A DNA stretch of 64,000 bases from an uncultured Candidatus Saccharibacteria bacterium (GTDB lineage Bacteria > Patescibacteriota > Minisyncoccia > Phycocordibacterales > UBA6065): positions 89,481 through 153,480 of the forward strand of contig CAYJCZ010000001.1 of assembly GCA_964368835.1 (NCBI GenBank), written 5' to 3'. Shown here piece after piece: positions 4,350 through 32,914 of this stretch. How positions within the stretch are numbered: position 1 is the first letter of the stretch; every line of letters starts with the position of its first letter. The notes under the pieces were generated by a model. It was not told where the DNA came from. It ran no database searches and was given only the letters and a program-made list of their open reading frames with translations. Both the position numbers and the translations under genes were made by a program.

Positions 4350-5000
4350 TTATCTTAATTTTCGAATCACTTTTCGCATTCCTCCCATTTTTCCTTGATC
4401 TCCTTGTCGCTGAGGTTTGTCATTGTGTTCTTGTCGGTTTTCCTCATTTCGATCGGTTTTCTTTGGGAATTCCCTGTGATCTCGACCGTTGTAACGGCCA
4501 CCCATCACGTATCGCCCTGCATTTTCATCCATGTCGATGAAATCGTCTGCGACTTCCTTGAGCTTTCCAGATGCTGACTTACCGAATGAAATTACTTCCA
4601 CTTGGCATCCATTCATCTTTAAGTACTCAATAAGAGGGATAAAGTCACCATCGCCTGATGCGATAACGACCACGTCGAGCTTTGATGCGAGTTTAACTGC
4701 ATCGATTGCCAAACCTACGTCCCAATCAGCCTTTTTTGAGCCAGATGAGAAGATTTGAAGATCTTTTGTCTTTGTTTCGATACCGATCTTTGTAAGAGCG
4801 TCGAAAAAGCCTTTTTCTTCGCCTGTTTCTGTGGTGATCACATATGCGATCGCACGAACAAGCTGACGTCCGGCTAGGGCGTCTCCTAGAACATTATCGA
4901 AGTTCACCCTTCCTTGATGAAGGTTTTTTGCGCTGTGATAGAGATTCTGCGCATCGAGGAATACGCCTACGCGCTGTTCCTTGTGTTTAATTACTGCCAT
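4350..5000 (-). CDS. NYN/LabA-like domain protein with basic C-terminal tail
   Basis: N-terminal VGVFLDAQNLYHSAK and ASGDGDFIPLIEYLK motifs typical of NYN (LabA-like) PIN-like nucleases. Lys/Arg-rich C-terminus. Confidence 0.7.
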   Translation of the reverse strand: MAVIKHKEQRVGVFLDAQNLYHSAKNLHQGRVNFDNVLGDALAGRQLVRAIAYVITTETGEEKGFFDALTKIGIETKTKDLQIFSSGSKKADWDVGLAIDAVKLASKLDVVVIASGDGDFIPLIEYLKMNGCQVEVISFGKSASGKLKEVADDFIDMDENAGRYVMGGRYNGRDHREFPKKTDRNEENRQEHNDKPQRQGDQGKMGGMRKVIRKLR

Positions 5001-5134
5001 ATAAAATATAGTTACCTACTAATTGACCGTCATAATATTAAAAAATCGAACTTTTTAAAATTTCATGCTTTCCTCAGGGCGGTTTCGTAAAACGAAACCG
5101 CCCTACTTACAAAGTATCGGGCGGCTTCAGTTTT

Positions 5135-5407
5135 TTATTTCTTGAGCTCGTTCTTTTTCGAAATCTCTGAGTTTCGCTTAGGTTGCTTTTGCTTCTTAGC
5201 GAGATACTTCATATGAGTCTGACGATTAGCTACCATCGCGAGGAGTCCTCGTCGAGAGTGCTTGTCTTTATCATGTTTTTTGAGATGTCGAGCAAGTTCT
5301 TCGATCTTTGCTGTTAAAAGCGCGATCTGAACTTCCGGTGAACCAGTGTCCGTTGCGTGGACGCCTGCGTTCTTGATTACTTTGGTTTTCTTTGTCGTTG
5401 AAAGCAT
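5135..5407 (-). CDS. rpsO: 30S ribosomal protein S15
   Basis: [38 protein letters not shown] matches the S15 core. The start was moved to the internal Met (MLSTTKK), since the tracked ORF has an implausible 35-aa leader. Lys-rich C-terminal tail. Confidence 0.85.
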
Positions 5408-5511
5408 GGTGTAAGAAGGATAGCACATAACTTTTGAAAATGCAAGCCCATTCCTGCTTATTTGAGCAGACGGGCCTATATATGAGCTATTTGCTATAAT
5501 ATTGTGCGACA

Positions 5512-6456
5512 TTGATCATATATAGGTACATGGCATCTCTTAAAGACTTAAAAACGCAGTTTCTTGAATATACAGAGATAGAAAAGGGTCGCAGTTTAAA
5601 TACTGTGCAGAATTATGATCGATATATCACTCGATTTTTGCAGTTTTTGAAGAAAGACTCCCCTTCTGACATCACGGATTCTTCTGTGCGCGAGTTTCGT
5701 CTTTGGCTCAACCGTCAGGCAACCGGAAATAACAAAAAGACGGGAGAAACACTTAAAAAGAAGACTCAGAACTATTATTTGATTGCTTTACGCGCTTTTC
5801 TCAAATATTTGGCGCGACAAGGAGTAAAATCGATGGCACCAGAGCGAATTGAGCTCGCAAAGGTTGGTGAACGTCATATTGAGTTTATGTCGAATGAAGA
5901 ACTTCACAGGTTGCTTGAGGCGCCGAAAGGTTCGGATCTCAAATCCTTGCGTGATCGAGCTATTTTGCAGATGTTGTTCTCTACTGGGCTCCGTGTCTCG
6001 GAATTGTGCTCACTTTCTCGAGATACTGATCTGTCGAGCGATGAAATCTCTATTAGAGGTAAGGGTGACAAGGTTCGCGTGGTTTTCCTCTCTGATGAGG
6101 CTAAGAAAGCTACAAAGGCTTACGTAGACAAGCGCGACGACGTAGATGATTCCCTTTTCGTTAAAGTGGCCGTAGAGACGCGTAATAAAGGTGAATCCAT
6201 GCCACTGACCCGCAGATCGGTAGAGCGCATCGTGAAACACTATGCGACAAAGGCCGGGATTATGTCGAAAAAAGTTACACCGCACGTTATTCGTCACTCG
6301 TTTGCGACGGATTTACTCTCTAATGGTGCTGATTTGCGCTCTGTTCAGGCACTTCTTGGTCATGCAAACATTGGAACTACTCAGATTTATACACACGTTA
6401 CAGACAAGCATCTGCGAAACATTCATAAGCAGTTTCATAATAAGAAGGGAAAGTAA
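5512..6456 (+). CDS. tyrosine site-specific recombinase (XerC/XerD family)
   Basis: C-terminal catalytic block [39 protein letters not shown] (R...HxxR...Y). N-terminal SAM-like core-binding domain. Alternative (TTG) start as tracked. Confidence 0.85.
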
Positions 6457-6581
6457 CACATTTACAAACAGGCTTTACTCGCCAGTCCTCGACAAAAAAT
6501 CCGTCAAAGAGAGCCTTGACGGATTTTTTATCTGCGGAGGCTCGCGCAGCTTGTTTGTAAATGTTTTGCTATCATACTGCT

Positions 6582-21340: not shown

Positions 21341-22594
21341 ATGGTATGGATGAAATCTCTTTTTGTAAAAATTCTCTTCGTTCTTTCACTCTCTGTACTT
21401 CCTCTCTTTGCATCCGCTGATGTTGGAAACGTCACTGGCTACGCATGGTCCGACAATATTGGTTGGATTAGTTTTACGTGTCTTAACACGAGCACGTGTG
21501 CAAGTAATGGTGGTAACGACTACGGTGTTACAGAAAATCCTGGTGGCAGTCTCACCGGCTACGCATGGTCAGATAATATAGGATGGGTCAAATTTGGCGG
21601 TCTCGCTAGTTTTCCATCTGGAGCGGGTACTGTTGCTCAGAACGCTCAGCTTGTTGGAGCAAATCTTGTTGGATGGGCACGAGCGTGTGCCGGAACAGCA
21701 GGAGGAGATTGTTCAAGCATGACAAGTCGAACAGACGGTTGGGATGGTTGGATTTCACTTGGAGGTACAAACTACGGTGTAACAAAAGTTGGTCAACAGT
21801 TTACGGATTATGCATGGGGCGGAGATGTAGTAGGTTGGATACTTTTTGACATACAAAATAAATTCCCAGCTGTCTGTGCTGGATGTGGAGTTATAGGTGG
21901 CGGCGGAGGAAGCAATGCGGATCTCGATGTGCGAAGTGGTGGAGCAGGTGGACCATCAATAGTAGGTAACGGTGCAGTCCTCTACGGCACTATCCCAACT
22001 TTTGTGTGGACGATCGTATCTCCGACAATGACATGCGATATCACAAAAACAGCTGGAGGCACAGCATTCACCTCTATATTAGGAGAGACCACATCAGGCT
22101 CTCGTGCCGGCAATCCTCTTAGCTCAGCTGGTCTTCATACATATCATCTTGAATGTACAAACCCTGCATATACAAAAGATGTAAGCTTTACCGTAGCGCC
22201 TCAAGTCACAGGCTTCTCAATGGGTGGAACTGAAACGGCTCGCATTCAATTCTTGGGATCAGGTCCTGCGAATTCTGAAATAAAGTCTCTATTTGTAACT
22301 CCTGGAGGTGGATTTAGTAATCCAGTTACAATTTCTATAACAGGTTTTCCTACTCCTCCTGCAGGAACCACCTTCACATATTCACTCGGAGGTAGTCCGT
22401 TTGTAGCAAATCCACCATCAGTTGTGATCAGTGATCCGTATCTCGCAGGTCAGACATTCCAGATTCGTTCATCAAGACCGATTTCAAATACATACACAAT
22501 CACTCTCACAGGTACAGCAAGCGGAGCATCAAATGTAACAAAGGACATCATTCTTGATCCTCGAGCATTTGATCCTTCATTTAATGAAATTTAA
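21341..22594 (+). CDS. secreted protein with novel Trp-rich GYAWSDNIGWI-x-F repeats
   Basis: Signal peptide, then at least four repeats: GYAWSDNIGWISF, GYAWSDNIGWVKFGG, DGWDGWISLGG, DYAWGGDVVGWILFD. C-terminal Thr/Ser/Gly-rich beta-rich region. No family recognised. Confidence 0.6.
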   Translation: MVWMKSLFVKILFVLSLSVLPLFASADVGNVTGYAWSDNIGWISFTCLNTSTCASNGGNDYGVTENPGGSLTGYAWSDNIGWVKFGGLASFPSGAGTVAQNAQLVGANLVGWARACAGTAGGDCSSMTSRTDGWDGWISLGGTNYGVTKVGQQFTDYAWGGDVVGWILFDIQNKFPAVCAGCGVIGGGGGSNADLDVRSGGAGGPSIVGNGAVLYGTIPTFVWTIVSPTMTCDITKTAGGTAFTSILGETTSGSRAGNPLSSAGLHTYHLECTNPAYTKDVSFTVAPQVTGFSMGGTETARIQFLGSGPANSEIKSLFVTPGGGFSNPVTISITGFPTPPAGTTFTYSLGGSPFVANPPSVVISDPYLAGQTFQIRSSRPISNTYTITLTGTASGASNVTKDIILDPRAFDPSFNEI

Positions 22595-22600
22595 ACGAGC

Positions 22601-22870
22601 ATGAAAAAGATTATTCTCATAATTGTTGTGTTGGCCGCGGTTGTCCTCCTTGTGCTATGGAAAGTATCGCAGGATAATGTAAAGCAAGAATCAACTTCAG
22701 TAGAAACTGCCCGAGCGCTCGACAGACTGGCGGCGCCGACACCGGAAGAAAAGCCTCTTACACCAGAGCAACAGGAAGCAATTCAAGGTTTATCAGCTCC
22801 TCAGACTCAGAAATCAGAGGCGCAGATGAAACAAGAAGCTGAAGCGTTACGATTATTAGAAGGAAAATAA
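22601..22870 (+). CDS. small secreted/membrane-anchored hypothetical protein
   Basis: N-terminal hydrophobic helix, Gln/Glu/Ala-rich C-terminus. Tightly packed in the operon. Confidence 0.4.
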   Translation: MKKIILIIVVLAAVVLLVLWKVSQDNVKQESTSVETARALDRLAAPTPEEKPLTPEQQEAIQGLSAPQTQKSEAQMKQEAEALRLLEGK

Positions 22871-22886
22871 AAGCACAACAAAACCC

Positions 22887-23474
22887 ATGACTCGAATTAC
22901 AACGATTACCATAGCAACACTAAGCGCACTCTCACTCACTCTCTTTCCACTTGGAGCAGGTGCGTGGACAGGTCCGTCCGCAACACCGCCAGGTGCAAAC
23001 ACTGCGGCTCCTCTTAATGTGTCTGGCAACTCTCAGGCAAAGGCAGCAGGACTTCTTCTTGCAACTTCGGCGGCTACGTACGGTCTTCTTGTGCAGAATG
23101 GAAACGTGGGTATTGGGCTTCTCAATCCAGTCTACAAGCTTGAGATTGCAGGGAGTGTAGGAGCAGGTGCTTTCTTCTATACGTCAGATCGAAATCTCAA
23201 GAAGAATATTTCTCCATTGAACGGCTCTCTTTCAAAAATTTTGAGCCTCGAAGGTGTTTCGTTTGCTTGGAAGGATACTGGAGCAAAGAGCGTGGGCCTC
23301 GTAGCGCAGGATGTTGAAAAGGTGTACCCAGAGCTTGTTCATACAAATCCTCAGAGTGGTATCAAGTCTGTTGAATACGGAAACCTTGTAGCACCACTTA
23401 TTGAAGCAATCAAAGAACAGCAGAAGCAGATTGATCAATTAAAAGCAGAGGTGAAGGCACTTAAGGGGGAATAA
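22887..23474 (+). CDS. secreted Gly/Ala-rich protein with C-terminal intramolecular-chaperone (peptidase S74-like) domain
   Basis: C-terminal SDRNLKKNI...LSLEGVSFAWKD...VGLVAQDVEKVYPELV...VEYGNLVAPLIEAIKEQQKQIDQLKAEVKALK matches the tail-fibre/endosialidase C-terminal chaperone domain pattern (SDxRxK auto-cleavage region, IAQE..PELV, LIEA.KEL, coiled tail). Confidence 0.65.
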   Translation: MTRITTITIATLSALSLTLFPLGAGAWTGPSATPPGANTAAPLNVSGNSQAKAAGLLLATSAATYGLLVQNGNVGIGLLNPVYKLEIAGSVGAGAFFYTSDRNLKKNISPLNGSLSKILSLEGVSFAWKDTGAKSVGLVAQDVEKVYPELVHTNPQSGIKSVEYGNLVAPLIEAIKEQQKQIDQLKAEVKALKGE

Positions 23475-23478
23475 ATAT

Positions 23479-23928
23479 ATGGATCCAATAATTCAAGCAA
23501 ACCCAGAGCAAAAGCAATCTCCGAAATTTGTGTTAGTTGGGATACTTTTGTTAGCTGCTGTTGGTCTTGGTGGCTACATCTATATGACACCTGGTACCTC
23601 TAAGACAGTAGAGCAAGATGGATATACCCAAAAAGAGGCAGTGGAATATGTAAAGACATCTGCAACAAATGCAGTAGCTGCAAATTCAGTTAACATCTCT
23701 GGTTGCGCACCTGATGTAAAAGTAGCTCAGGTAAATATGGGGGATGCTTTGGAATTTAATAACCCCGACAGAATTGGTCACACGATTTGGTTCAGTCCCG
23801 ATCAAACATACCTCATTCCACTTCAAAGTAAGGTAAGTATCAAGCTCAATTTTTTGAAATTTCCAGGCGTAGTTGATTATATGTGCGATTCCAAGTTTGT
23901 CGGCCAGGTTTTTATTACCAATAAATAA
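23479..23928 (+). CDS. hypothetical membrane-anchored protein
   Basis: N-terminal TM ([20 protein letters not shown]), about 125 aa extracytoplasmic domain with 2 Cys. Confidence 0.45.
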
Positions 23929-25811
23929 TGAAAGCGCTAACTATGAGAGCTTTAATACGAAAAATCGGAATAGTTTGCTTTACTGTTTTGTCACTTGTGG
24001 TGGTGCTTGGGAATAATGCTTTTGCCGCTGAGCGCTATCAAGTGGATCCTGGGCAGACGGCTATAATTGATGAATGGGGTGTTTGTTACAACGTAACAAA
24101 CAATGTTCCTAATCCACCTGTCTTTGTCCCAACTAGAACATCGGGGGAATGGAGTTCATTTTATACAAACGTACCGCCTAATGTGCAGTTGACACCATGT
24201 GTTGCTGGAATTCCTGGGTGTATGGATCCTGTGGCTACAAATTATGATCCTGCAGCAACTATAAATGTTGGATGTACATATGCACCCGGCTGCGATCCTA
24301 TTGCTGGAACCACTTGTACCTCTGGTAGCAATGTGTGCGGCCAGTACACGACAGACAGTTATGACTGTACAGGTAGTTGTCCTGCGGTCACACCGCCTGA
24401 CACAAACTGTCCTATGATTGTTGTGGGATGTACAAGTCCCGGCGCTCTAAACTATAATCCCGCAGCTAATGTGAGTGGTCTTTGTCTATGGCCAACAGGA
24501 TGTATGACTCCTGGTTATGACAATTATGATCCAGCTGCTGTGGTTCCTGATTCTTGTAATTGTAATGCTGGTAGGTCATGGAACGGTAATGCGTGTCAGG
24601 ATGATGCGCTTCCAATTGACGGAGGTTGGTCGGCTTGCAGTGTTTCTTGTGGGGGTGGAACTCGTAGCTGTGATAATCCAGCACCAGCAAACGGAGGTGC
24701 GGCTTGTACCGGTTCAACAGATTGCAACACACAGGCTTGCCCTACAGGTCCTGTAGATGGAGGTTGGTCAGGATGGGGACCTTGCTCTGCTTCTTGCGGA
24801 GGAGGAACTCAAAGCCGTTCATGTGATAACCCTGTACCTGCAAACGGAGGCGCTGCCTGTTCTGGTAGTTCATCACAAGCTTGCAACACTCAGGCGTGTT
24901 TAGCGGGATGTACAACTGAAACCTGTGGAGCAACTGCTCCTAATGGTGATGTTTGTGGTTCACCTGTTGATCCTGGATGTGGTGGCGGTCCAGTCGGACC
25001 TCGTGGATGTAGTACTGAAACTTGCGGAGCAGTAGCTCCTAATGGAGACATTTGCGGCTCACCAACTGACCCTGGATGTGGTGGCGGTCCAGCATGTGTT
25101 CCAAGTTGTGCAGGAAGGACTTGTGGGGCAACTGATAGTTGCGGCACAGGAACTTGCGGTTCACCAACTGACCCTGGATGTGGTGGCGGTCCAGCATGTG
25201 TTCCAAGTTGTGCAGGAAGGACTTGTGGGGCAACTGATAGTTGCGGCACAGGAACTTGCGGTTCACCAACTGACCCTGGATGTGGCCCAATTGGCCCTGC
25301 AGGTTGTACGACTGAGTCTTGCGGAGCAACTGCTCCCAACGGTGATATGTGTGGAGGGGTTTGTGATTCAGGTTGCCCAGCAGCAGGATCACCTGGATGT
25401 ACTGGAGCTTGTACTACAGAAACCTGCGGTGCTCAATCTCCTAACGGATCTGTCTGCGGTAGTAATTGTGATGCGGGATGTCCTGGTGCTGGTGGACCAG
25501 GTTGTGGAGGAGGCGGGGGCGGAGGAGGACCTACGTGTGACCCAACATGCGGGTGCGGAATGCACGAGGAGTTCGTTTGCGATATTATGGATTTGGAATG
25601 CACGTGCGATTCATCCCCGTCTGGATGTAGTTTAGATACTCCACCGACATCATGTTCAGCTTTTGAGTGTAATTGTAACGAATATGGCGAGTATCCTAAT
25701 TGTACTGATTGGTACGGTAATCCCGGAGGATTCAGTTGTACGGTTACGGGTTGTGGTATGAACTGTAATCTTGCCTGCACCATAGGTTCAGATCGATGTG
25801 TGCCAGATTAA
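23928..25811 (+). CDS. secreted cysteine-rich protein with two thrombospondin type-1-like repeats and tandem 34-aa Cys-rich repeats
   Basis: Signal peptide. TSP1-like [39 protein letters not shown] and [43 protein letters not shown]. Then [28 protein letters not shown] repeats. Confidence 0.7.
25081..25284 (+). repeat. perfect 102-nt tandem duplication (2 copies) inside the Cys-rich gene
   Basis: gtggcggtccagcatgtgttccaagttgtgcaggaaggacttgtggggcaactgatagttgcggcacaggaacttgcggttcaccaactgaccctggatgtg occurs twice back-to-back. It encodes identical 34-aa units, with older diverged copies flanking. Confidence 0.85.
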
Positions 25812-25844
25812 ATTTAAAAGTCCTGTTAAGTTTATATAATTAAA

Positions 25845-26396
25845 ATGAACAACACACTTAAGATAGTCATCGCCTTACTTCTATGTATTTGTGTTGGATA
25901 TTTTATTTATAGTAAACAGACAAAGAGTACATCGCCACAATTGAATAATAGTGGAACAACTAGCATAAATACTTATAAGTTTGCCGAAGGAAGTTTGCCA
26001 AATAATCCGAATATTAAAACCAGTGAACAGAAGTTTCTTTTTGAGAATCTTTTGAAGCGAGATTCAACATTGGAGGAAAGAAAAAAAATTCTAACTATGG
26101 CAGTAAATGCAGCCGTGGATACCAATGCGCTCGTCCTTAGCGAAAATTGCCTGTCTAATCCGCCTGTAATTAAAATGACGTACGCTTCGAAGTTAAGTGT
26201 CTCAAATACATCAAAAACTGATCAACAGATGATAATTGGTACAAGCAGTGTAATATTGCCAAAAAATTCAGTAAAGACTGTCACGCTTGAGCAGTTGGGA
26301 GTAGGGCAGCTTGCTTCTAAAGGAGTAGTGTTGAAGAGTTATGCCTGCACAGGATTAGATTATCCAGCTGGGTTCATTGTTGTATATCCAAACTAA
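25845..26396 (+). CDS. hypothetical membrane-anchored protein
   Basis: N-terminal TM, Asn/Ser/Thr-rich extracytoplasmic region. Confidence 0.45.
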   Translation: MNNTLKIVIALLLCICVGYFIYSKQTKSTSPQLNNSGTTSINTYKFAEGSLPNNPNIKTSEQKFLFENLLKRDSTLEERKKILTMAVNAAVDTNALVLSENCLSNPPVIKMTYASKLSVSNTSKTDQQMIIGTSSVILPKNSVKTVTLEQLGVGQLASKGVVLKSYACTGLDYPAGFIVVYPN

Positions 26397-27660
26397 AATT
26401 TTCAACAGGCAATTTTTTGCTTTTAGTTGCCTTTTCTTAATTGTATTAAGTGGCTTTTTTCTACGCTTTTATAGTATTGGTTCGCAGTCTTTATGGATAG
26501 ATGAAATTTATACTGTGAACGCTGCATTTTCTGTACTCGAACACGTTATCCCTCTACTTGACTCCGGTCAAATATATACAAATAATTTTGTTTCTGTATA
26601 TCTCACGGCTCTTACTATTAAGATTGCTGGGTTTGATGTATTTAATCCTTGGGCCTCAAGGTTACCGTCTGTTTTTTTTGGAACCTTACTCATCCCATTA
26701 GTGTATTTTCTTTCAAAGAAAGTATTCGAGAATGAAAAAGCTGCATTTTTTTCGGCGTTTTTAATTGCTTTTTCGTATCTTGAAATTGCATGGTCTAGGC
26801 AGGTAAGAGGATATGCTGCACTAGCTTTTTTTATAACCATAGCTTTGTATCATCTTTGGAATTATCTTTTGGAAGCAAAAACACGGAATTTGTTAATATT
26901 TTTTGTGTATTATGTACTCGCATGTCTATCTCACTGGGCTGCACTTACATTTACACCTTCATTACTATTAGTTCTCGTAATTAAAAAACAGATACCAGTT
27001 GAAAAGCTGTGGGGGAAGATATTGTTTTTTACGCTATTTGTAATACCTCCTTTGATTCTTTTAAAATTTAAGTATCCGGTTTCAGGAGGGATTTTCCTAA
27101 GGTATGCAGTCTTCCCATTTTTTCCTATCGTGAGTATTCTTTTTGGCTATATTGTTGTTAGGTTATTTGAGTACCCTTCAGTAAAAGGCAGGTTAGTTCC
27201 AAAATTAGTTTTGGCAGGTTGTGTTGCGATAATTGTTTTCATGATGCCACTTCAGCTTATTCCACTTAAGACACACGAACTTTATCTCCAGGCCCCCCAG
27301 CCAGATTTTAATAAGGTTTTTTCAATTATTCTAAATGAAAGAGAGAGTGATGATGTTGTCATCACATTGCGTCCAGTTTTGAGTCGTCTGTATTTAGGTA
27401 GCGACGGTCTATGGCTCTCGCTTAAATCAAAAAAAGTTGATGAAATTGATATGTACGTTGGAGCAAAACCACTTGTTAAATCATCCGAGTTAATGGACGT
27501 AATTAATTTTGGGAGTGGTTTTATTGTGGTGGATGGGCACTCGTTTTTCACTATTCTACTGAAAAAATATCCAGAAATTTTTGAGCATCCCAAGCTTAAA
27601 CTTAGAATGTATTCCTGTGGTGCAAAACAATTAGACTGTATCTGGCTTTACCGTTTTTAA
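26377..27660 (+). CDS. GT-C fold glycosyltransferase (PMT_2/ArnT-like, GT39/GT83 type), polytopic membrane protein
   Basis: About 11 TM helices with a first-loop DE motif (SLWIDEIYTVNAA) characteristic of PMT/ArnT-type polyprenyl-phosphate-sugar dependent transferases. Confidence 0.6.
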   Translation: MLYIQTKIFNRQFFAFSCLFLIVLSGFFLRFYSIGSQSLWIDEIYTVNAAFSVLEHVIPLLDSGQIYTNNFVSVYLTALTIKIAGFDVFNPWASRLPSVFFGTLLIPLVYFLSKKVFENEKAAFFSAFLIAFSYLEIAWSRQVRGYAALAFFITIALYHLWNYLLEAKTRNLLIFFVYYVLACLSHWAALTFTPSLLLVLVIKKQIPVEKLWGKILFFTLFVIPPLILLKFKYPVSGGIFLRYAVFPFFPIVSILFGYIVVRLFEYPSVKGRLVPKLVLAGCVAIIVFMMPLQLIPLKTHELYLQAPQPDFNKVFSIILNERESDDVVITLRPVLSRLYLGSDGLWLSLKSKKVDEIDMYVGAKPLVKSSELMDVINFGSGFIVVDGHSFFTILLKKYPEIFEHPKLKLRMYSCGAKQLDCIWLYRF

Positions 27661-27771
27661 AGTTACAATTAGAACACACGTTTGCTTTTTTTTCTAATAG
27701 GCGTATGCTTTAGCTAGAGCACTATATGTTGTCAATGATGTTGTTTAAAATCATGTTTTTGGAGGTAATAA

Positions 27772-28818
27772 ATGAAATCTACAGGCTTTGTTTCTGTTTG
27801 GTTTCCGTACGTGGCGATTTCGCTACTACTGTTTGTTGAATGTTTTTCAGCTCCGAACGTAAAGACGGCTTTTGTTCCGTCATTCGTTCCAACACCACTC
27901 GAGGACCTCACTACCACAGATCCTTCAATCCGTCGTCAGATTCCACTTCTCAGCGGTTGGGTTGTCAGAAATCAAGCTAGAATTGTTGGAAATCCACGAT
28001 TGATAATCAAGGATGGTAGTTTGGTGGGTGTCGATGTTGATTATGTTAATGATGAACCCAGTCCGATTGAGTTGGGCTACAAACGGTTTGAAACTCCTTT
28101 TGCACTCCCTTCAGACGTCTCTGAAAAGAGGGTAGAAGAGGAGGTTTGGAAGAAAATTTGCAAACAGGGTTCAGACCAGACAAGTGACTTCTTCGGCAGT
28201 TATTCCTTGGGGCTAAATTTAGTTCAAGGGGATAAGGAAAGAATTGTATACGGTATTTGGTATCTACGAAAAAATACCACCTATACTCGATACGATTCGA
28301 AGAAAAATAAGTTTGTCACATCGGCACCACAGGTTTATCTGAGAAGGATAATGGAGCTTGCTGCATTGCCAGCTCCGACGCCGTTACTGGTTACAGAGAG
28401 GCCAGATCTGCGTTTGGTGACCGAGGAGAAAGAAGTTACCCTTACCCTGACAGCGGCACATGTACCCTTCAAATTGGAGGTTGATTCCAAGTTGGCCACC
28501 GTGATGGAGCCTGTAAGGGTCGTTGCGGAGTGGTTGGATGTCCAGCCTGTTTTAAGGAATGGAAAGATCGATCAGCTTAAGATTGTTCGGGTGGCCGCAG
28601 GTACTCCTTTAGAGAAGGCTGGTGTCAGGGTTGGCCAGCAAATCCGGAGTATCCAAGGGGTGAACGTAATCGGACTGACTGAGCGAGAGTATGATCAAAA
28701 GATGATCGAAACTCCTGTAAAGGGAACATTTCAGATCGAGGTGATTGATTCCTTTGGTAAGATTACTCGTATTAATCTGATCCAGAGCCCGTCTCCACTA
28801 GCATCTGTATCTCCTTGA
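27772..28818 (+). CDS. secreted hypothetical protein with C-terminal PDZ-like segment
   Basis: Signal peptide. C-terminal IVRVAAGTPLEKAGVRVGQQIRSIQGVNV resembles a PDZ binding loop. Confidence 0.5.
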   Translation: MKSTGFVSVWFPYVAISLLLFVECFSAPNVKTAFVPSFVPTPLEDLTTTDPSIRRQIPLLSGWVVRNQARIVGNPRLIIKDGSLVGVDVDYVNDEPSPIELGYKRFETPFALPSDVSEKRVEEEVWKKICKQGSDQTSDFFGSYSLGLNLVQGDKERIVYGIWYLRKNTTYTRYDSKKNKFVTSAPQVYLRRIMELAALPAPTPLLVTERPDLRLVTEEKEVTLTLTAAHVPFKLEVDSKLATVMEPVRVVAEWLDVQPVLRNGKIDQLKIVRVAAGTPLEKAGVRVGQQIRSIQGVNVIGLTEREYDQKMIETPVKGTFQIEVIDSFGKITRINLIQSPSPLASVSP

Positions 28819-28836
28819 GATTGTTTCAGGCACTTG

Positions 28837-28868
28837 CAAACCAATGAATTCGTTCATTGGTTTTTTAT
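28837..28868. terminator. bidirectional terminator
   Basis: AAACCAATGAA-ttcg-TTCATTGGTTTTTTATTTT. Confidence 0.6.
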
Positions 28869-29122
28869 TTTCGTGAAACGAAGGAAAGATTATACAGCGC
28901 CAGAAAAAAAGGAAATAAGTTTGCAAGAAACCCAACTAAATCCTTTTTGCCTAACGAAAAGTAAGCCATAAGAAGCAGACTGCCAGATATGCTTGTGTAC
29001 CAAAAGTAGACAGGAAGTACACTTTTTTGAGCCTGTCTTGATGCAATAACCTGTATGACCCACCGTAAGGAGAAAAGCGCTACGCCTGTGAATCCGACTA
29101 TATTCCAGAAATAACTAGTCAT
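28865..29122 (-). CDS. LAB_N (lipid-A-disaccharide-synthase N-terminal like) small membrane protein
   Basis: WNIVGFTGVALFSLRWVIQVIASRQAQKSVLPVYFWYTSISGSLLLMAYF matches the about 90-aa LAB_N family usually paired with a GT2 polyprenyl-phosphate glycosyltransferase. Start moved to the internal Met. Confidence 0.6.
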   Translation of the reverse strand: MTSYFWNIVGFTGVALFSLRWVIQVIASRQAQKSVLPVYFWYTSISGSLLLMAYFSLGKKDLVGFLANLFPFFLALYNLSFVSRK

Positions 29123-29768
29123 TTTTAATTTTCGATTTAAATATATAAATATCAACTAATCCTTTAATGGTTCTATTGCTGAGATTATATTTCGTCTTCC
29201 CCGCAAATCTTTTTCTTGCCTGGATAGGGACCTCAATCAAAGTCAGACCTGCACTCTCCAAAAAACTTGGAATAAACCTGTGCATCCCTTCAAAAAGATG
29301 TAAGTGGGGAAGGTGACTCTTTCGAATAAGCTTCATTGCACCAGTATCCCGAGCGCTGTCCCGTGTAAATATACTTCTTACCCGGTTTGCGATTTTTGAG
29401 GCCGCACGATTCACGATACTCCTTTTTCTATTGATTCGATAGCCACATACAAAATCCGCCTGTAGCGAAGCCTCAAGTAATTTATGAATATCCTGGGGAT
29501 CACATTCACCATCTCCGTCCATGAGTACACATAATTCGTGACTTGCCTGATTAAGACCGTGCCAGGTCGCATGGCTTTGGCCTTTTCTCTCTGCAAAAGA
29601 GAGTAATGTAACGTTTTCCCGCTCTGAGACAATGGCCTGTGTTCGGTCTGTACTGCCATCGTTAACCACAAGTATTTCTGCTGCAGGGTGCATTTTTTCT
29701 ACCTCGTCGAGCACAAATCTAATGCTTTCTTCTTCATTGTGGACAGGGATAATAATAGAAAACTTCAT
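29115..29768 (-). CDS. GT2 family glycosyltransferase (polyprenyl-phosphate sugar synthase, DPM1/ArnC-like)
   Basis: MKFSIIIPVHNEEESI...VVNDGSTD...DGDGE GT-A DxD-type motifs. About 217 aa. Confidence 0.8.
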   Translation of the reverse strand: MKFSIIIPVHNEEESIRFVLDEVEKMHPAAEILVVNDGSTDRTQAIVSERENVTLLSFAERKGQSHATWHGLNQASHELCVLMDGDGECDPQDIHKLLEASLQADFVCGYRINRKRSIVNRAASKIANRVRSIFTRDSARDTGAMKLIRKSHLPHLHLFEGMHRFIPSFLESAGLTLIEVPIQARKRFAGKTKYNLSNRTIKGLVDIYIFKSKIKND

Positions 29769-29835: not shown

Positions 29836-30582
29836 TTACTTTGCGAGGGCTGCTTTAATCTGGCTTTCAAGGCTGTCTGCTGAGACTGCGCCGCCGAGTA
29901 CTGTATTACCCTTTGCGGTAACAATCACGCTGTAAGGCGTACCTTTTGCTCCAGCTGAGATGCCACTCTGGTACTGCGCTTCTACTTTAGCTGCATATTT
30001 GCCGCTATCAAGGCAGGTCTGGAACTTTGCTCGATCAAGACCAATATAAGCAGCGATGTTTGGAAGTTCTGATGCTTCGAGTCGGTTGTTTGTTGGGCTT
30101 ACTTCAAACAATCGGTCGATATATTTCCAGAATCCATCATTTCCACCAAGTTCTGCTGCACATTCAGATGCTTCAGCTTCTTTTCGTGCCTTTGAATGGA
30201 GAGCATCAAGAGGGAAGTGTCGATATACCCACGCAACATCAGTTCCAGCAAATTTTGCTGTGACTGTCTTGAGTGTTGAATGGAACTGCTTACAGAACGG
30301 ACATTCGAGATCAGAATATTCAACTATGACTGCTTTTGCCTTTGCGTTACCACGGATATGGTCAGCAGAGGTAACTGCTGGAACCTTGACCGCTGCTGCA
30401 GCTGTAGGAGCCGCAGCCGTAGGATTTGCAGCTACTGCTGCAGTTGTTCCTTTTACTGCCATGCCTCCAACATTGCTTAGGCCAAAATAAAGTCCTGCGC
30501 CAATAAAGAGTCCCGCGAGGGCAACTGAAAGGGGAAGCGTGAGCCAATCCCTATAATCTGATTTTTGATCAATGTGTGTCAT
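29836..30582 (-). CDS. DsbA-like thiol:disulfide oxidoreductase, membrane-anchored
   Basis: N-terminal TM, Ala-rich linker, thioredoxin-fold CPFC active site (YSDLECPFCKQFH). Confidence 0.75.
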   Translation of the reverse strand: MTHIDQKSDYRDWLTLPLSVALAGLFIGAGLYFGLSNVGGMAVKGTTAAVAANPTAAAPTAAAAVKVPAVTSADHIRGNAKAKAVIVEYSDLECPFCKQFHSTLKTVTAKFAGTDVAWVYRHFPLDALHSKARKEAEASECAAELGGNDGFWKYIDRLFEVSPTNNRLEASELPNIAAYIGLDRAKFQTCLDSGKYAAKVEAQYQSGISAGAKGTPYSVIVTAKGNTVLGGAVSADSLESQIKAALAK

Positions 30583-30652
30583 GCGTATAAACGTGTGAAA
30601 AAATAACAGGTTGATTGTATCACGCTCGATATATTTTTGTTATGCTTTACGT

Positions 30653-31105
30653 ATGTTCAAGCGACAGTTTAAAAGTATGTGGCGCACCAATGCACCCAAG
30701 AGGATTTTCAAGAAAATTATCCTCGCGCTTCTTATCACCCTCGTTGTGTACGGTATCGGTTCGCTTCTGGTTAAAGACACCGTTGAGGCACCGCAATCTC
30801 CGGTCGCAACAGTGTTTATGACAAAAGATGGCTTTGTTCCAACAGAAATTGCCATAAAGCGTGGCCAATCAATTGAATTTATCAATAGTTCACCTGTTGG
30901 ATGTTTGGCAGGGGACGCGGAGTGTAATGTCTGGCCGGTATCAGATCCGTATCCATCTCACGATCTTTATCCGGAGTTTAATTCACAAAAACCAGTACAG
31001 CCGGGCACTTCCTGGATTTTCACCTTTAAAAAATCAGGTAATTGGGGTTTTCACGATCATTTAAGGTACAAGAATCGTGGTGTGATCCGTGTTATTGGCG
31101 AGTAA
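30653..31105 (+). CDS. membrane-anchored protein with possible cupredoxin-like domain
   Basis: N-terminal TM, then a beta-rich segment with Cys/His residues (CLAGDAEC...GFHDHL). The family call is tentative. Start moved to the internal Met. Confidence 0.35.
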   Translation: MFKRQFKSMWRTNAPKRIFKKIILALLITLVVYGIGSLLVKDTVEAPQSPVATVFMTKDGFVPTEIAIKRGQSIEFINSSPVGCLAGDAECNVWPVSDPYPSHDLYPEFNSQKPVQPGTSWIFTFKKSGNWGFHDHLRYKNRGVIRVIGE

Positions 31106-31165: not shown

Positions 31166-32914
31166 ATGTACATCGAAGAGCAACAACTAAAAACCTTCAT
31201 CGTTGATTCCGGTCTCGTTTCAAAAAAAGACATCGCTGATGCCGAAAAGGAAGCACGATCAAAAAAAACCGGTCTCGGTGAAATACTTGTTGTACAAGGA
31301 AAGCTATCAGAAGACGATCTTCGTAAAACCCAAGCGTATATTTTGGGAATTCCTTTCGTGGACCTCAAAGGGCAGAAGATTGATTTTACGGTTCTTTCAC
31401 TTGTTCCAGAACCAATTGCACGTAGCCACAATATAGTCGCTTTCAAGAAAACGTCTGACACGCTCGAGGTTGCCATGCTTGATACCGACGACCTTCACGC
31501 AATCGACTTTATTAAAAAGAAGGTGGGTCTGCGCATCATGCCGCGTCTGACCGATGCTGAATCAATCAAATCGGTTCTACTCCAGTATCAAAAAAGCCTC
31601 AAAGCTGAGTTCGGAGACCTTATCAAGAAGGAAACAGCTACTCTAAAGGCTCTTTCAGAGGAAATAGGGGGTAAGGCAAACGAGGGGGATCTCAAAAAGA
31701 TGGCCGAAGACCTCCCGGTTATTCGTGTCGTTGATACGCTTTTGAAGCATGCCATCATACAGGGTGCATCCGACGTTCATATTGAACCGATGGAAAAGGA
31801 GCTTTTGGTGCGATATCGAATTGACGGTCTTCTCCACGATGCTATGGTGCTCCCTAAAGAGGCAGAAACCTCCATTACGGCGCGTATCAAGGTGCTTTCG
31901 AATCTGAAGCTTGATGAGAAGCGTTTGCCTCAAGACGGGCGTTTTAAAGTCGAAATGAACGAAGAGAAAGTGTCGCTTCGTGTGTCGATTTTGCCAACAT
32001 TTTATGGTGAAAAGACAGTTATGCGACTTTTGCGAGAATCTGTTTCAGGTTTTAGTCTTGAGCACCTTGGTTTTCATGGGGAAGCGCTCGAACGTATCCA
32101 TGCAGCAACAAAGCTTGCGACGGGTATGATCCTTGCGACGGGACCTACAGGATCTGGTAAGTCTACAACCCTCTATACAGTGCTTGATATTTTGAATACA
32201 CCTGACGTAAACATCTCAACTGTTGAGGACCCGGTTGAATATCAGATGCCTCGAGTTAATCAGACCGCTGTTCGCCCAGATATCGGCTTTACATTCGCAG
32301 TGGGACTACGAACTCTCGTTCGACAAGACCCCGATATCATCATGGTGGGAGAAATTCGAGATAACGAGACTGCTGCGCTTGCCGTAAACGCTGCACTTAC
32401 TGGTCACTTGGTGCTTTCTACGCTTCACACCAACTCTGCTGCTGGTGCAATGCCACGACTTCTTGATATGAAGATCGAGCCGTTCCTTCTTGTATCGACG
32501 CTTTCGGTGGTGATTGGTCAGCGACTTGTGCGAAGACTCACCGAATCTCGAGAGCGCAGGCCTCTTACAAAAGCGGAACTCACTGCACTAGGCAAAGTAG
32601 TGGATCTTGATCGAATGCTCAGTATCTTGCGCGCAGAAAAAGCAATTGGTCCAAAAGATGAGTGGGACAAAGTTATGTTTGGAGTGCCGCGAGTGACACC
32701 CGATAACGATGGATACAAAGGGCGAGTTGGTATTCACGAAGTTTTGAAAATGTCTCCAACTATTAAGGAGCTTATTATGAAAGGGGCAACATCGGGCGCT
32801 ATAGAAGAACAAGCAAAGCGAGAGGGAATGGTTACGATGCTTGAAGACGGTATTTATAACGCTGCTCAAGGATATACGACTATCGAAGAGGTGCTTCGTG
32901 TGGTGACGGAATAA
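31166..32914 (+). CDS. pilB: type IV pilus assembly ATPase PilB (GspE family)
   Basis: N-terminal GSPII_E N-domain, Walker A LATGPTGSGKSTTLYTVL, Asp/His boxes, Walker B. About 580 aa. Confidence 0.9.
   Translation: MYIEEQQLKTFIVDSGLVSKKDIADAEKEARSKKTGLGEILVVQGKLSEDDLRKTQAYILGIPFVDLKGQKIDFTVLSLVPEPIARSHNIVAFKKTSDTLEVAMLDTDDLHAIDFIKKKVGLRIMPRLTDAESIKSVLLQYQKSLKAEFGDLIKKETATLKALSEEIGGKANEGDLKKMAEDLPVIRVVDTLLKHAIIQGASDVHIEPMEKELLVRYRIDGLLHDAMVLPKEAETSITARIKVLSNLKLDEKRLPQDGRFKVEMNEEKVSLRVSILPTFYGEKTVMRLLRESVSGFSLEHLGFHGEALERIHAATKLATGMILATGPTGSGKSTTLYTVLDILNTPDVNISTVEDPVEYQMPRVNQTAVRPDIGFTFAVGLRTLVRQDPDIIMVGEIRDNETAALAVNAALTGHLVLSTLHTNSAAGAMPRLLDMKIEPFLLVSTLSVVIGQRLVRRLTESRERRPLTKAELTALGKVVDLDRMLSILRAEKAIGPKDEWDKVMFGVPRVTPDNDGYKGRVGIHEVLKMSPTIKELIMKGATSGAIEEQAKREGMVTMLEDGIYNAAQGYTTIEEVLRVVTE

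Follow-up and report, generated by a model that had tools for sequence, protein, structure and literature searches.

A minimal fibre gene with a phage-type S74 chaperone domain in a patescibacterial chromosome, the shortest member of an undescribed family of putative mosaic surface proteins

The S74 domain, the self-cleaving trimerization chaperone of phage tail fibres, has already been described in cellular proteins. Bdellovibrio bacteriovorus encodes 21 mosaic adhesive trimeric (MAT) fibres with signal peptides, and 13 of these end in an S74 domain with the motif SDxxxK (PMC10769870). Both self-cleavage (Bd3182 S782A) and surface localization have been demonstrated for MAT fibres (Caulton et al. 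2024, PMC10769870). Among eukaryotes, such co-option is represented by MyRF. How Patescibacteria (candidate phyla radiation, CPR) find and hold their hosts is largely unknown beyond type IV pili (PMC11665869), and full-text literature searches brought up no mention of S74 or MAT-like fibres for these bacteria. The subject here is a gene in a 64,000-nucleotide stretch of DNA (the window) from an uncultured Candidatus Saccharibacteria bacterium (assembly GCA_964368835.1, contig CAYJCZ010000001.1, positions 89,481 to 153,480). This mini-fibre gene (22887..23474 including the stop codon; features within 21341..28863 lie on the + strand) encodes 195 residues, in which an S74 domain stands behind a signal peptide, a conserved N-terminal box (N-box) and a single beta-helix rung. 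Within a very large family of putative mosaic surface-fibre proteins, not described before, this product is the shortest.

The open reading frame (ORF) starts with an ATG at 22887 and closes with a stop codon at 23472-23474. An earlier reading made from the letters alone (the sequence-only reading) had reported this frame, quoted peptide strings from it that are present as described, and assigned its C-terminal half to the S74-like chaperones. That assignment is confirmed: the ORF truly ends in the self-cleaving trimerization chaperone domain of phage tail fibres (residues 100-195; 23184..23471). Pfam PF13884 (Peptidase_S74; MEROPS S74) matches residues 100-152 over its full profile (positions 1-58/58) with E=4.7e-16 and a score of 59.3 bits against a cut-off of 22. 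Residues ~62-195 are matched by 43 PHROG families (best E=3.2e-35), always through their own C-terminal ends, and among the families shown, tail fibres and baseplates account for nearly all. A profile of 26 homologues finds three solved S74-type chains in the PDB, namely 6f45 (E=2.7e-12), 8jov and 7dc3, the ICA domain of MyRF. An AlphaFold2 monomer model, built on an alignment of 116 sequences, reaches a pLDDT of ~90 or more over residues 100-195 and shows the chaperone fold with the C-terminal helix that forms the trimeric coiled coil in such domains (residues 164-194; 23376-23468). Foldseek places 7dc3 closest to this model (E=1.5e-5, TM 0.69), followed by the endosialidase chaperone (3gw6/3gud). 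The 453 homologues of the protein carry source names such as Parcubacteria/Paceibacterota 'tail fiber domain-containing protein'.

The role of the catalytic dyad in S74 cleavage is established. In endoNF, T5 pb1, MyRF and Bd3182 a Ser-Lys dyad within SDxxxK carries out the reaction, and the scissile bond lies N-terminal to the serine, between Thr1263 and Ser1264 in T5 pb1 and between P586 and S587 in MyRF. The corresponding motif in the mini-fibre, T99/S100-D-R-N-L-K105 (the slash marks the predicted cut), contains the predicted autoproteolytic site SDRNLK (23184..23201). S100, D101 and K105 are invariant in the 116 aligned homologues, and Ser100 and Lys105 correspond to Ser1264 and Lys1269 of T5 pb1 and to S587 and K592 of MyRF. 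The predicted cut thus falls between Thr99 and Ser100, with Ser100 as probable nucleophile and Lys105 as probable general base; the invariance of both residues argues for cleavage. The Ser-Asp dyad named in the sequence-only reading should accordingly read Ser-Lys, as in all four characterized proteins. Phage S74 domains also use an arginine from the upstream triple beta-helix as an oxyanion helper (R897 in endoNF, R1250 in pb1). In MyRF the helper is Lys671 of the chaperone itself, and no residue of the stalk takes part in cleavage. K160 of the mini-fibre is nearly invariant among homologues; that it serves as a MyRF-like helper is a guess.

The part ahead of the chaperone had been described as only a short Gly/Ala-rich segment behind a signal peptide. 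The signal peptide holds up, whereas the remainder is no low-complexity filler and consists of two conserved modules, the N-box and a capping loop. By inspection, residues 1-26 (22887..22964) form a predicted Sec signal peptide, laid out as MTR, a hydrophobic core and GAGA, with Trp27 immediately behind. Across the family, small or AxA-like residues occupy positions -3 and -1 of the predicted cut and a nearly invariant Trp follows 0-2 residues further on; the conserved Trp motif starts within the first ~40 residues (mostly 19-42) in 85/120 homologues. The N-box (residues 27-56; 22965..23054) reads WTxPxxxPPxxNxxAPLNVSxxxQxKxxxL in the mini-fibre and has the consensus WTxPxxxPPxGNxxAP(L/I)NxSxxxQxKxGxL, in which W27, P30, N38, P42, N44, Q50 and K52 hardly vary. 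Reading its 'NVS' as an N-glycosylation sequon was rejected, as the S/T position is not conserved. The second module is a capping loop with a beta-helix rung (residues 71-99, GNVGIGLLNPVYKLEIAGSVGAGAFFYT; 23097..23183) recognized by profile alignment. Residues 71-85 (GNVGIGLLNPVYKL) conform to the capping-loop motif VG..xxPxxxL known from the trimeric beta-helix of MAT fibres. In profile searches of the PDB the rung aligns with the MyRF stalk just before the cleavage site, and the capping-loop or N-terminal repeat region aligns with repeats of the Bdellovibrio MAT fibres 8ond (Bd2133) and 8oml. The pro-form (169 residues) has a computed mass of 17.5 kDa per chain, which cleavage would divide into an N-terminal product of ~7.1 kDa and a chaperone of ~10.4 kDa. 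The predicted mature product after both cuts has 73 residues per chain, so that the N-terminal product of roughly 10 kDa expected earlier is too large; the value of ~10.4 kDa belongs to the released chaperone.

The N-box defines a family far larger than the S74 group. A profile of 42 residues, used in an exhaustive search of 1.84 billion cluster representatives, matches 8,096 proteins (clusters) at E<=1e-3, with the match nearly always beginning at residues 20-46, and 1,932 at E<=1e-10. The box starts at residues 2-46, right behind the signal peptide, in ~142 of the 150 best matches. Its C-terminal partners are a mosaic of S74 domains, collagen, T4 gp34-like modules, lectins and Cys-rich tips. 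Among 148 members scanned with Pfam, nine carry S74, and the other domains found are collagen, Gp34_trimer (T4), Gp53-like_C, Collar, Shufflon_N, H_lectin, discoidin and fn3. In most of the 148 Pfam recognizes nothing, and Cys-rich tails close many of these unmatched proteins. All members with a source name come from Patescibacteria (Nomura-, Yonath- and Curtissbacteria and the Parcubacteria group), and no relatives of the N-box were found in Pfam, NCBIfam or the PDB. Longer paralogues of 230-340 residues carry insertions between the N-box and the last rung. In six of them (266-327 residues: P0023, P0028, P0030, P0035, P0041 and P0085) the insert, GWYxESYGGGWYMQDxTWIRSY..., corresponds to Shufflon_N in Pfam, which is the constant part of PilV, an adhesin of conjugative pili. 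A type IV pilin identity was considered for the mini-fibre and rejected: it has no G/FTLIE-type leader, and the Shufflon_N insert of its longer paralogues is absent from it.

The gene is chromosomal and vertically inherited. The sequence-only reading had placed it in a chromosomal surface-protein operon and not in a prophage, and this is borne out: phage genes are missing nearby and the arrangement is syntenic across Paceibacterota. Rather than phage structural or lysogeny genes, its flanks hold housekeeping and envelope genes, with RNase Y, ClpP, RsmE, trigger factor, pyrophosphatase and NusA upstream and PMT_2, a PDZ protein, GT2, a DsbA-like protein and PilB (31166..32914) downstream. A PHROG scan of the seven flanking genes of the block gave no significant match; the 89-aa gene gave one portal match at 0.0013. 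In 50,697 phage genomes the protein has 683 matches, all below 60% identity, and those listed span only residues 69-195. Neither the 80 viral loci nor the Bdellovibrio S74 fibres contain the N-box, and a pattern scan for it in 2.9 million viral contigs (IMG/VR) found nothing. The gene is under purifying selection. Compared with an orthologue of 82% identity, dN/dS comes to 0.13 for the protein as a whole, with 0.127 over residues 27-99 and 0.059 over the S74 part, values that are rough since dS is near saturation.

The mini-fibre gene lies in a block of eight + strand genes (21341..28818), tightly spaced or overlapping, which is closed by a terminator-like hairpin (28838..28863; an 11-bp stem and a T run, by consensus match only). 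A promoter scan did not rise above chance, so no promoter is claimed. The cassette within it runs from the GYAWS-repeat protein through a ~100-aa membrane protein and the N-box/S74 protein to the PTKT-EW protein. Five more lineages have it beside NusA, with S74 proteins that are 82, 52, 52, 54 and 48% identical to that of the window; in the 48% lineage the two genes upstream of the S74 gene are missing. A sixth lineage (55%) has the cassette without NusA within the stretch fetched. The first gene of the block encodes a 417-aa exported protein (21341..22594) whose N-terminal ~170 residues carry repeats of the type GYAWSDNIGW(I/V)xF and which has no family or PDB match. Among the loci fetched around S74 fibre genes (L numbers), its orthologues or paralogues precede the S74 gene in L002/3, L004-6, L007, L028 and L167-L170. 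Paralogues are found in L007, L028, L168 and L170, and the GYAWS N-domain heads not only the cassette but also proteins with other C-termini, such as an NHL/beta-propeller protein in L170. The 89-aa protein immediately upstream of the S74 gene (22601..22870) has an N-terminal membrane helix and, by eye, 'LTxEQxxA'-like repeats. Its sequence similarity is detected only to L002, and its position is held by a gene of 93-108 codons in L002, L004, L167, L168 and L169.

The last gene of the cassette encodes a 627-aa exported, Cys-rich protein (23928..25811), which begins with a domain of ~75 residues (24000..24221) named here PTKT-EW. Its pattern is ..VC..VTN....F(V/I)PTKT..EW..F....P..V.L..C., with two conserved cysteines, and it has no Pfam or PDB match. 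In genomes of CPR, Bdellovibrionota and Omnitrophota and in DPANN-labelled bins, this undescribed domain opens the gene that directly follows S74 fibre genes. The family was counted with a local profile within the loci already fetched around such genes. A PTKT-EW gene lies at most 700 bp downstream of the S74 fibre gene in 10/10 CPR look-up loci, on the same strand except in L009. It stands directly downstream in 19/77 species-representative genomic loci against 0/76 viral loci (Fisher p=1e-6). The 19 belong to Paceibacterota and other CPR, Bdellovibrio, Bacteriovorax, Omnitrophota, two bins labelled as DPANN archaea and two labelled as proteobacteria; Bacteroidota are not among them. The domain was recorded in L002-L006, L008, L009, L011, L012, L015, L018-L020, L023-L026, L030, L033, L036, L051, L071, L073, L074 and L167-L170. 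The C-termini of PTKT-EW proteins vary, from thrombospondin type 1 (TSP1) repeats to fibrinogen-like domains (Bdellovibrio) and acidic YESTYE repeats. The paper on MAT fibres is silent on neighbours of this type (PMC10769870). In the 627-aa protein the PTKT-EW domain is followed by two TSP1 repeats (Pfam TSP_1, E=8.6e-8) and Cys-rich modules. The repeats, of the form WSxCSxxCGGGxxxR, lie at 24600..24900, the rest of this CPR surface protein consists of repeated Cys-rich modules, and TSP1 repeats also occur in L012 (6321..7955). The TSP1 domain is mainly known from adhesins of animals and apicomplexans. In one of the PTKT-EW loci, L023 of a Bacteriovorax stolpii metagenome-assembled genome, a fibre-like protein with an S74 terminus (4420..6546) has a type IV prepilin-like leader and helix (..QSG/MTLVEIMIAAGLLGGLAIAG) and looks like a fusion of pilin and tail fibre.

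Between the S74 gene and the 627-aa gene lies that of a 149-aa protein (23479..23928) with an N-terminal membrane helix and no family match, which recurs in the close relative L002 alone and, weakly, in L168. It is one of three small proteins that combine an N-terminal membrane helix with a beta-rich C-terminal part. The second (25845..26396) has relatives in L004-6 and L168, and the third (30611..31105) shows a weak Cupredoxin_1 match (E=3.9e-4, below the cut-off). A PMT_2-family (GT-C) glycosyltransferase is encoded at 26377..27660 (PF13231, E=7.6e-10), and PMT_2 genes are likewise neighbours of the S74 gene in L002, L004-6 and L168. Together with this gene, those of a GT2 enzyme (29115..29768, - strand) and a DsbA-like thioredoxin (29836..30582, - strand) flank the surface-protein genes; GT2 and LAB_N recur beside the cassette in relatives. 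The PMT_2, GT2 and DsbA-like neighbours suggest protein O-glycosylation and disulfide formation of exported proteins. By likeness to actinobacterial Pmt/Ppm, the adjacent PMT_2 and GT2 enzymes suggest that the Ser/Thr/Pro-rich N-terminus of the mini-fibre may be O-glycosylated. The gene of PilB, the ATPase of type IV pili, is located 7.7 kb downstream of the S74 gene, and pilB-pilC-pilin genes directly follow the cassette in two relatives (L167, 8543..11920; L169, 8690..14068), so that cassette and pilus genes are neighbours in several Paceibacterota.

A general mechanism for the mini-fibre can be proposed. (i) The signal peptide would be removed on Sec-dependent export. (ii) The S74 domain would trimerize via its terminal helix. 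(iii) The S74 trimer would template the folding of the preceding capping-loop rung. (iv) After assembly, Ser100, activated by Lys105, would cut the Thr99-Ser100 bond, and the 10.4-kDa chaperone would depart. (v) What remains would be a trimeric stub of 7.1 kDa per chain, headed by the N-box and possibly glycosylated by the adjacent PMT_2 and GT2 enzymes. (vi) The stub would then work at the cell surface with its putatively co-transcribed partners, the GYAWS-repeat protein, the small membrane proteins and the adhesin-like PTKT-EW/TSP1 protein, and would so belong to the machinery with which these ultra-small bacteria make contact with other cells. This course of events, from export to a small N-box-headed trimer acting at the surface with its operon partners, is held with slightly better than even confidence. 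Several observations weigh against it. Residues 27-99 are coil in the monomer model, with a pLDDT of 59-75. No arginine occurs anywhere in these residues, so the oxyanion helper represented by R897 of endoNF and R1250 of pb1 is missing. The 73-residue stub has neither a tip domain nor an obvious anchor (no LPXTG, and no membrane segment once the signal peptide is gone). Some long members also contain the second half of the N-box internally; given this recurrence, the N-box may be a structural start module and not necessarily a docking element. The sequence-only reading had seen in the gene the co-option of the chaperone for a cellular surface filament. The cellular context stands, but a mature product of this size is a stub rather than a filament, and the MAT fibres, which lend the idea a precedent, also deprive it of novelty (PMC10769870).

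Other explanations differ in what they make of the stub and of its partners. It may be an adaptor in a two-part fibre: the N-box would dock to a surface platform, and release of the S74 domain would expose the distal end of the trimer, which would recruit the PTKT-EW domain. The real adhesin would then be the variable C-terminus of the PTKT-EW protein (TSP1, fibrinogen-like or Cys-rich), and the mini-fibre would have no tip because it is a linker. The association of the two genes in CPR and other genomic loci, its absence from viral loci and the tight spacing or overlap of the cassette genes are consistent with such a role, as is the unmasking of a binding surface by chaperone release in T5 pb1 and Bd3182. 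Adjacency, however, need not mean interaction. A second PTKT-EW gene of L004-6 stands behind a GYAWS-repeat gene and not behind an S74 gene, and in the window the 149-aa gene separates the S74 and PTKT-EW genes. The adaptor role is considered rather unlikely. Extended to a modular host-contact system of CPR derived from phage fibres, in which the mini-fibre is stalk or adaptor, S74 self-cleavage exposes an end and the PTKT-EW protein is the exchangeable adhesin, the idea is somewhat less probable still.

Little probability attaches to a role of the S74 domain itself as the functional product, or to its not being released; the trimeric domain would then serve as an exposed head or act as a soluble factor, and the N-terminal part would be a mere leader. 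Residues 100-195 do hold most of the invariant columns and the lowest dN/dS, and the stub is very small. The discarded chaperone domains of phages are equally conserved, though, the invariant catalytic Ser and Lys point to cleavage, and the N-box, nearly invariant too, marks thousands of proteins without S74. Equally doubtful is a membrane-anchored form, in which an uncleaved N-terminal signal anchor, with Trp27 at the membrane interface, would tether the stub by three membrane helices. It would solve the problem of the missing anchor, and Trp is common at membrane interfaces; throughout the family, nevertheless, AxA-type residues regularly precede the Trp by 0-2 residues, in keeping with signal peptidase I, and nothing else favours retention of the hydrophobic segment. 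Least probable by far is that the gene is what remains of a prophage tail fibre or was acquired recently from a phage. An S74 domain with a capping loop is typical of phage tail fibres, but this origin was rejected on the absence of phage genes nearby, on synteny with housekeeping genes across lineages down to 47% identity, on purifying selection and on the absence of the N-box from the viral collections searched.

The N-box family may help CPR bacteria to attach to other cells. If so, CPR would own a large and diversifying set of trimeric, phage-fibre-like surface proteins that parallels the prey-recognition fibres of Bdellovibrio. The 195-aa gene would be the one conserved, syntenic member of this set and, for that reason, a tractable entry point. 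The pairing of S74 and PTKT-EW genes, which predatory bacteria share, hints at a common attachment module across unrelated cell-attaching lineages. Were the modular host-contact system real, the pair would be a common toolkit of cell-attaching predators and epibionts, and the ~8,100 N-box clusters would represent the CPR repertoire for host recognition. The 169-residue pro-form is approximately the smallest natural substrate for studying S74 chaperone-assisted trimer folding and self-cleavage.

Comparison with known systems places the mini-fibre among cellular S74 proteins. With the phage chaperones (K1F endosialidase 3gw6/3gud, T5 pb1 and the T4-like long tail fibre 6f45) it shares the Pfam family, the Ser-Lys dyad and, by prediction, the C-terminal coiled coil. 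Unlike them, it has no phage context and no Arg helper in the stalk, and it does not match their long tentacle, as judged from a low TM-score to 3gw6. Trimeric autotransporter adhesins, a name given by JGI to two homologues, are trimeric surface fibres with coiled-coil and beta elements, as the mini-fibre is predicted to be. This identity was rejected for the mini-fibre, in which Pfam finds no YadA-type membrane anchor and no head or stalk domains. The source organism belongs to a monoderm CPR lineage. The best structural match is the ICA domain of MyRF with its beta-helical stalk (7dc3), and the sequence alignment spans residues 69-195, that is, capping loop, rung and chaperone. Both proteins have the short version of the chaperone, and the mature part of the mini-fibre offers no Arg, much as no stalk residue of MyRF contributes to cleavage. 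MyRF is a transcription factor of the eukaryotic endoplasmic reticulum membrane, and its cleavage releases a DNA-binding trimer that a C-terminal anchor had tied to the membrane; the mini-fibre has no such anchor.

Close counterparts are the S74-terminated MAT fibres such as Bd3182. These too are cellular, with a signal peptide, trimeric beta-helix capping loops and a C-terminal S74 domain with SDxxxK. They differ at the N-terminus, where MAT fibres carry a conserved domain, beta-rich and ~130 residues long, and the N-box family has its box of ~30-40 residues instead. The MAT-type domain is not found in the 195-aa protein, which has the N-box only, and the Bdellovibrio S74 proteins of L024, L026 and L036 begin with a different domain that gives no N-box match. 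MAT fibres comprise hundreds to 1,800 residues and present a binding cleft or tip, whereas the mini-fibre would leave 73 residues; self-cleavage and surface location, demonstrated for the former, are predicted for the latter. The N-box family is further set apart by its occurrence in Patescibacteria. Both families are mosaic, with S74 replaceable by other tips, both have a PTKT-EW gene downstream, and both occur in organisms that attach to other cells.

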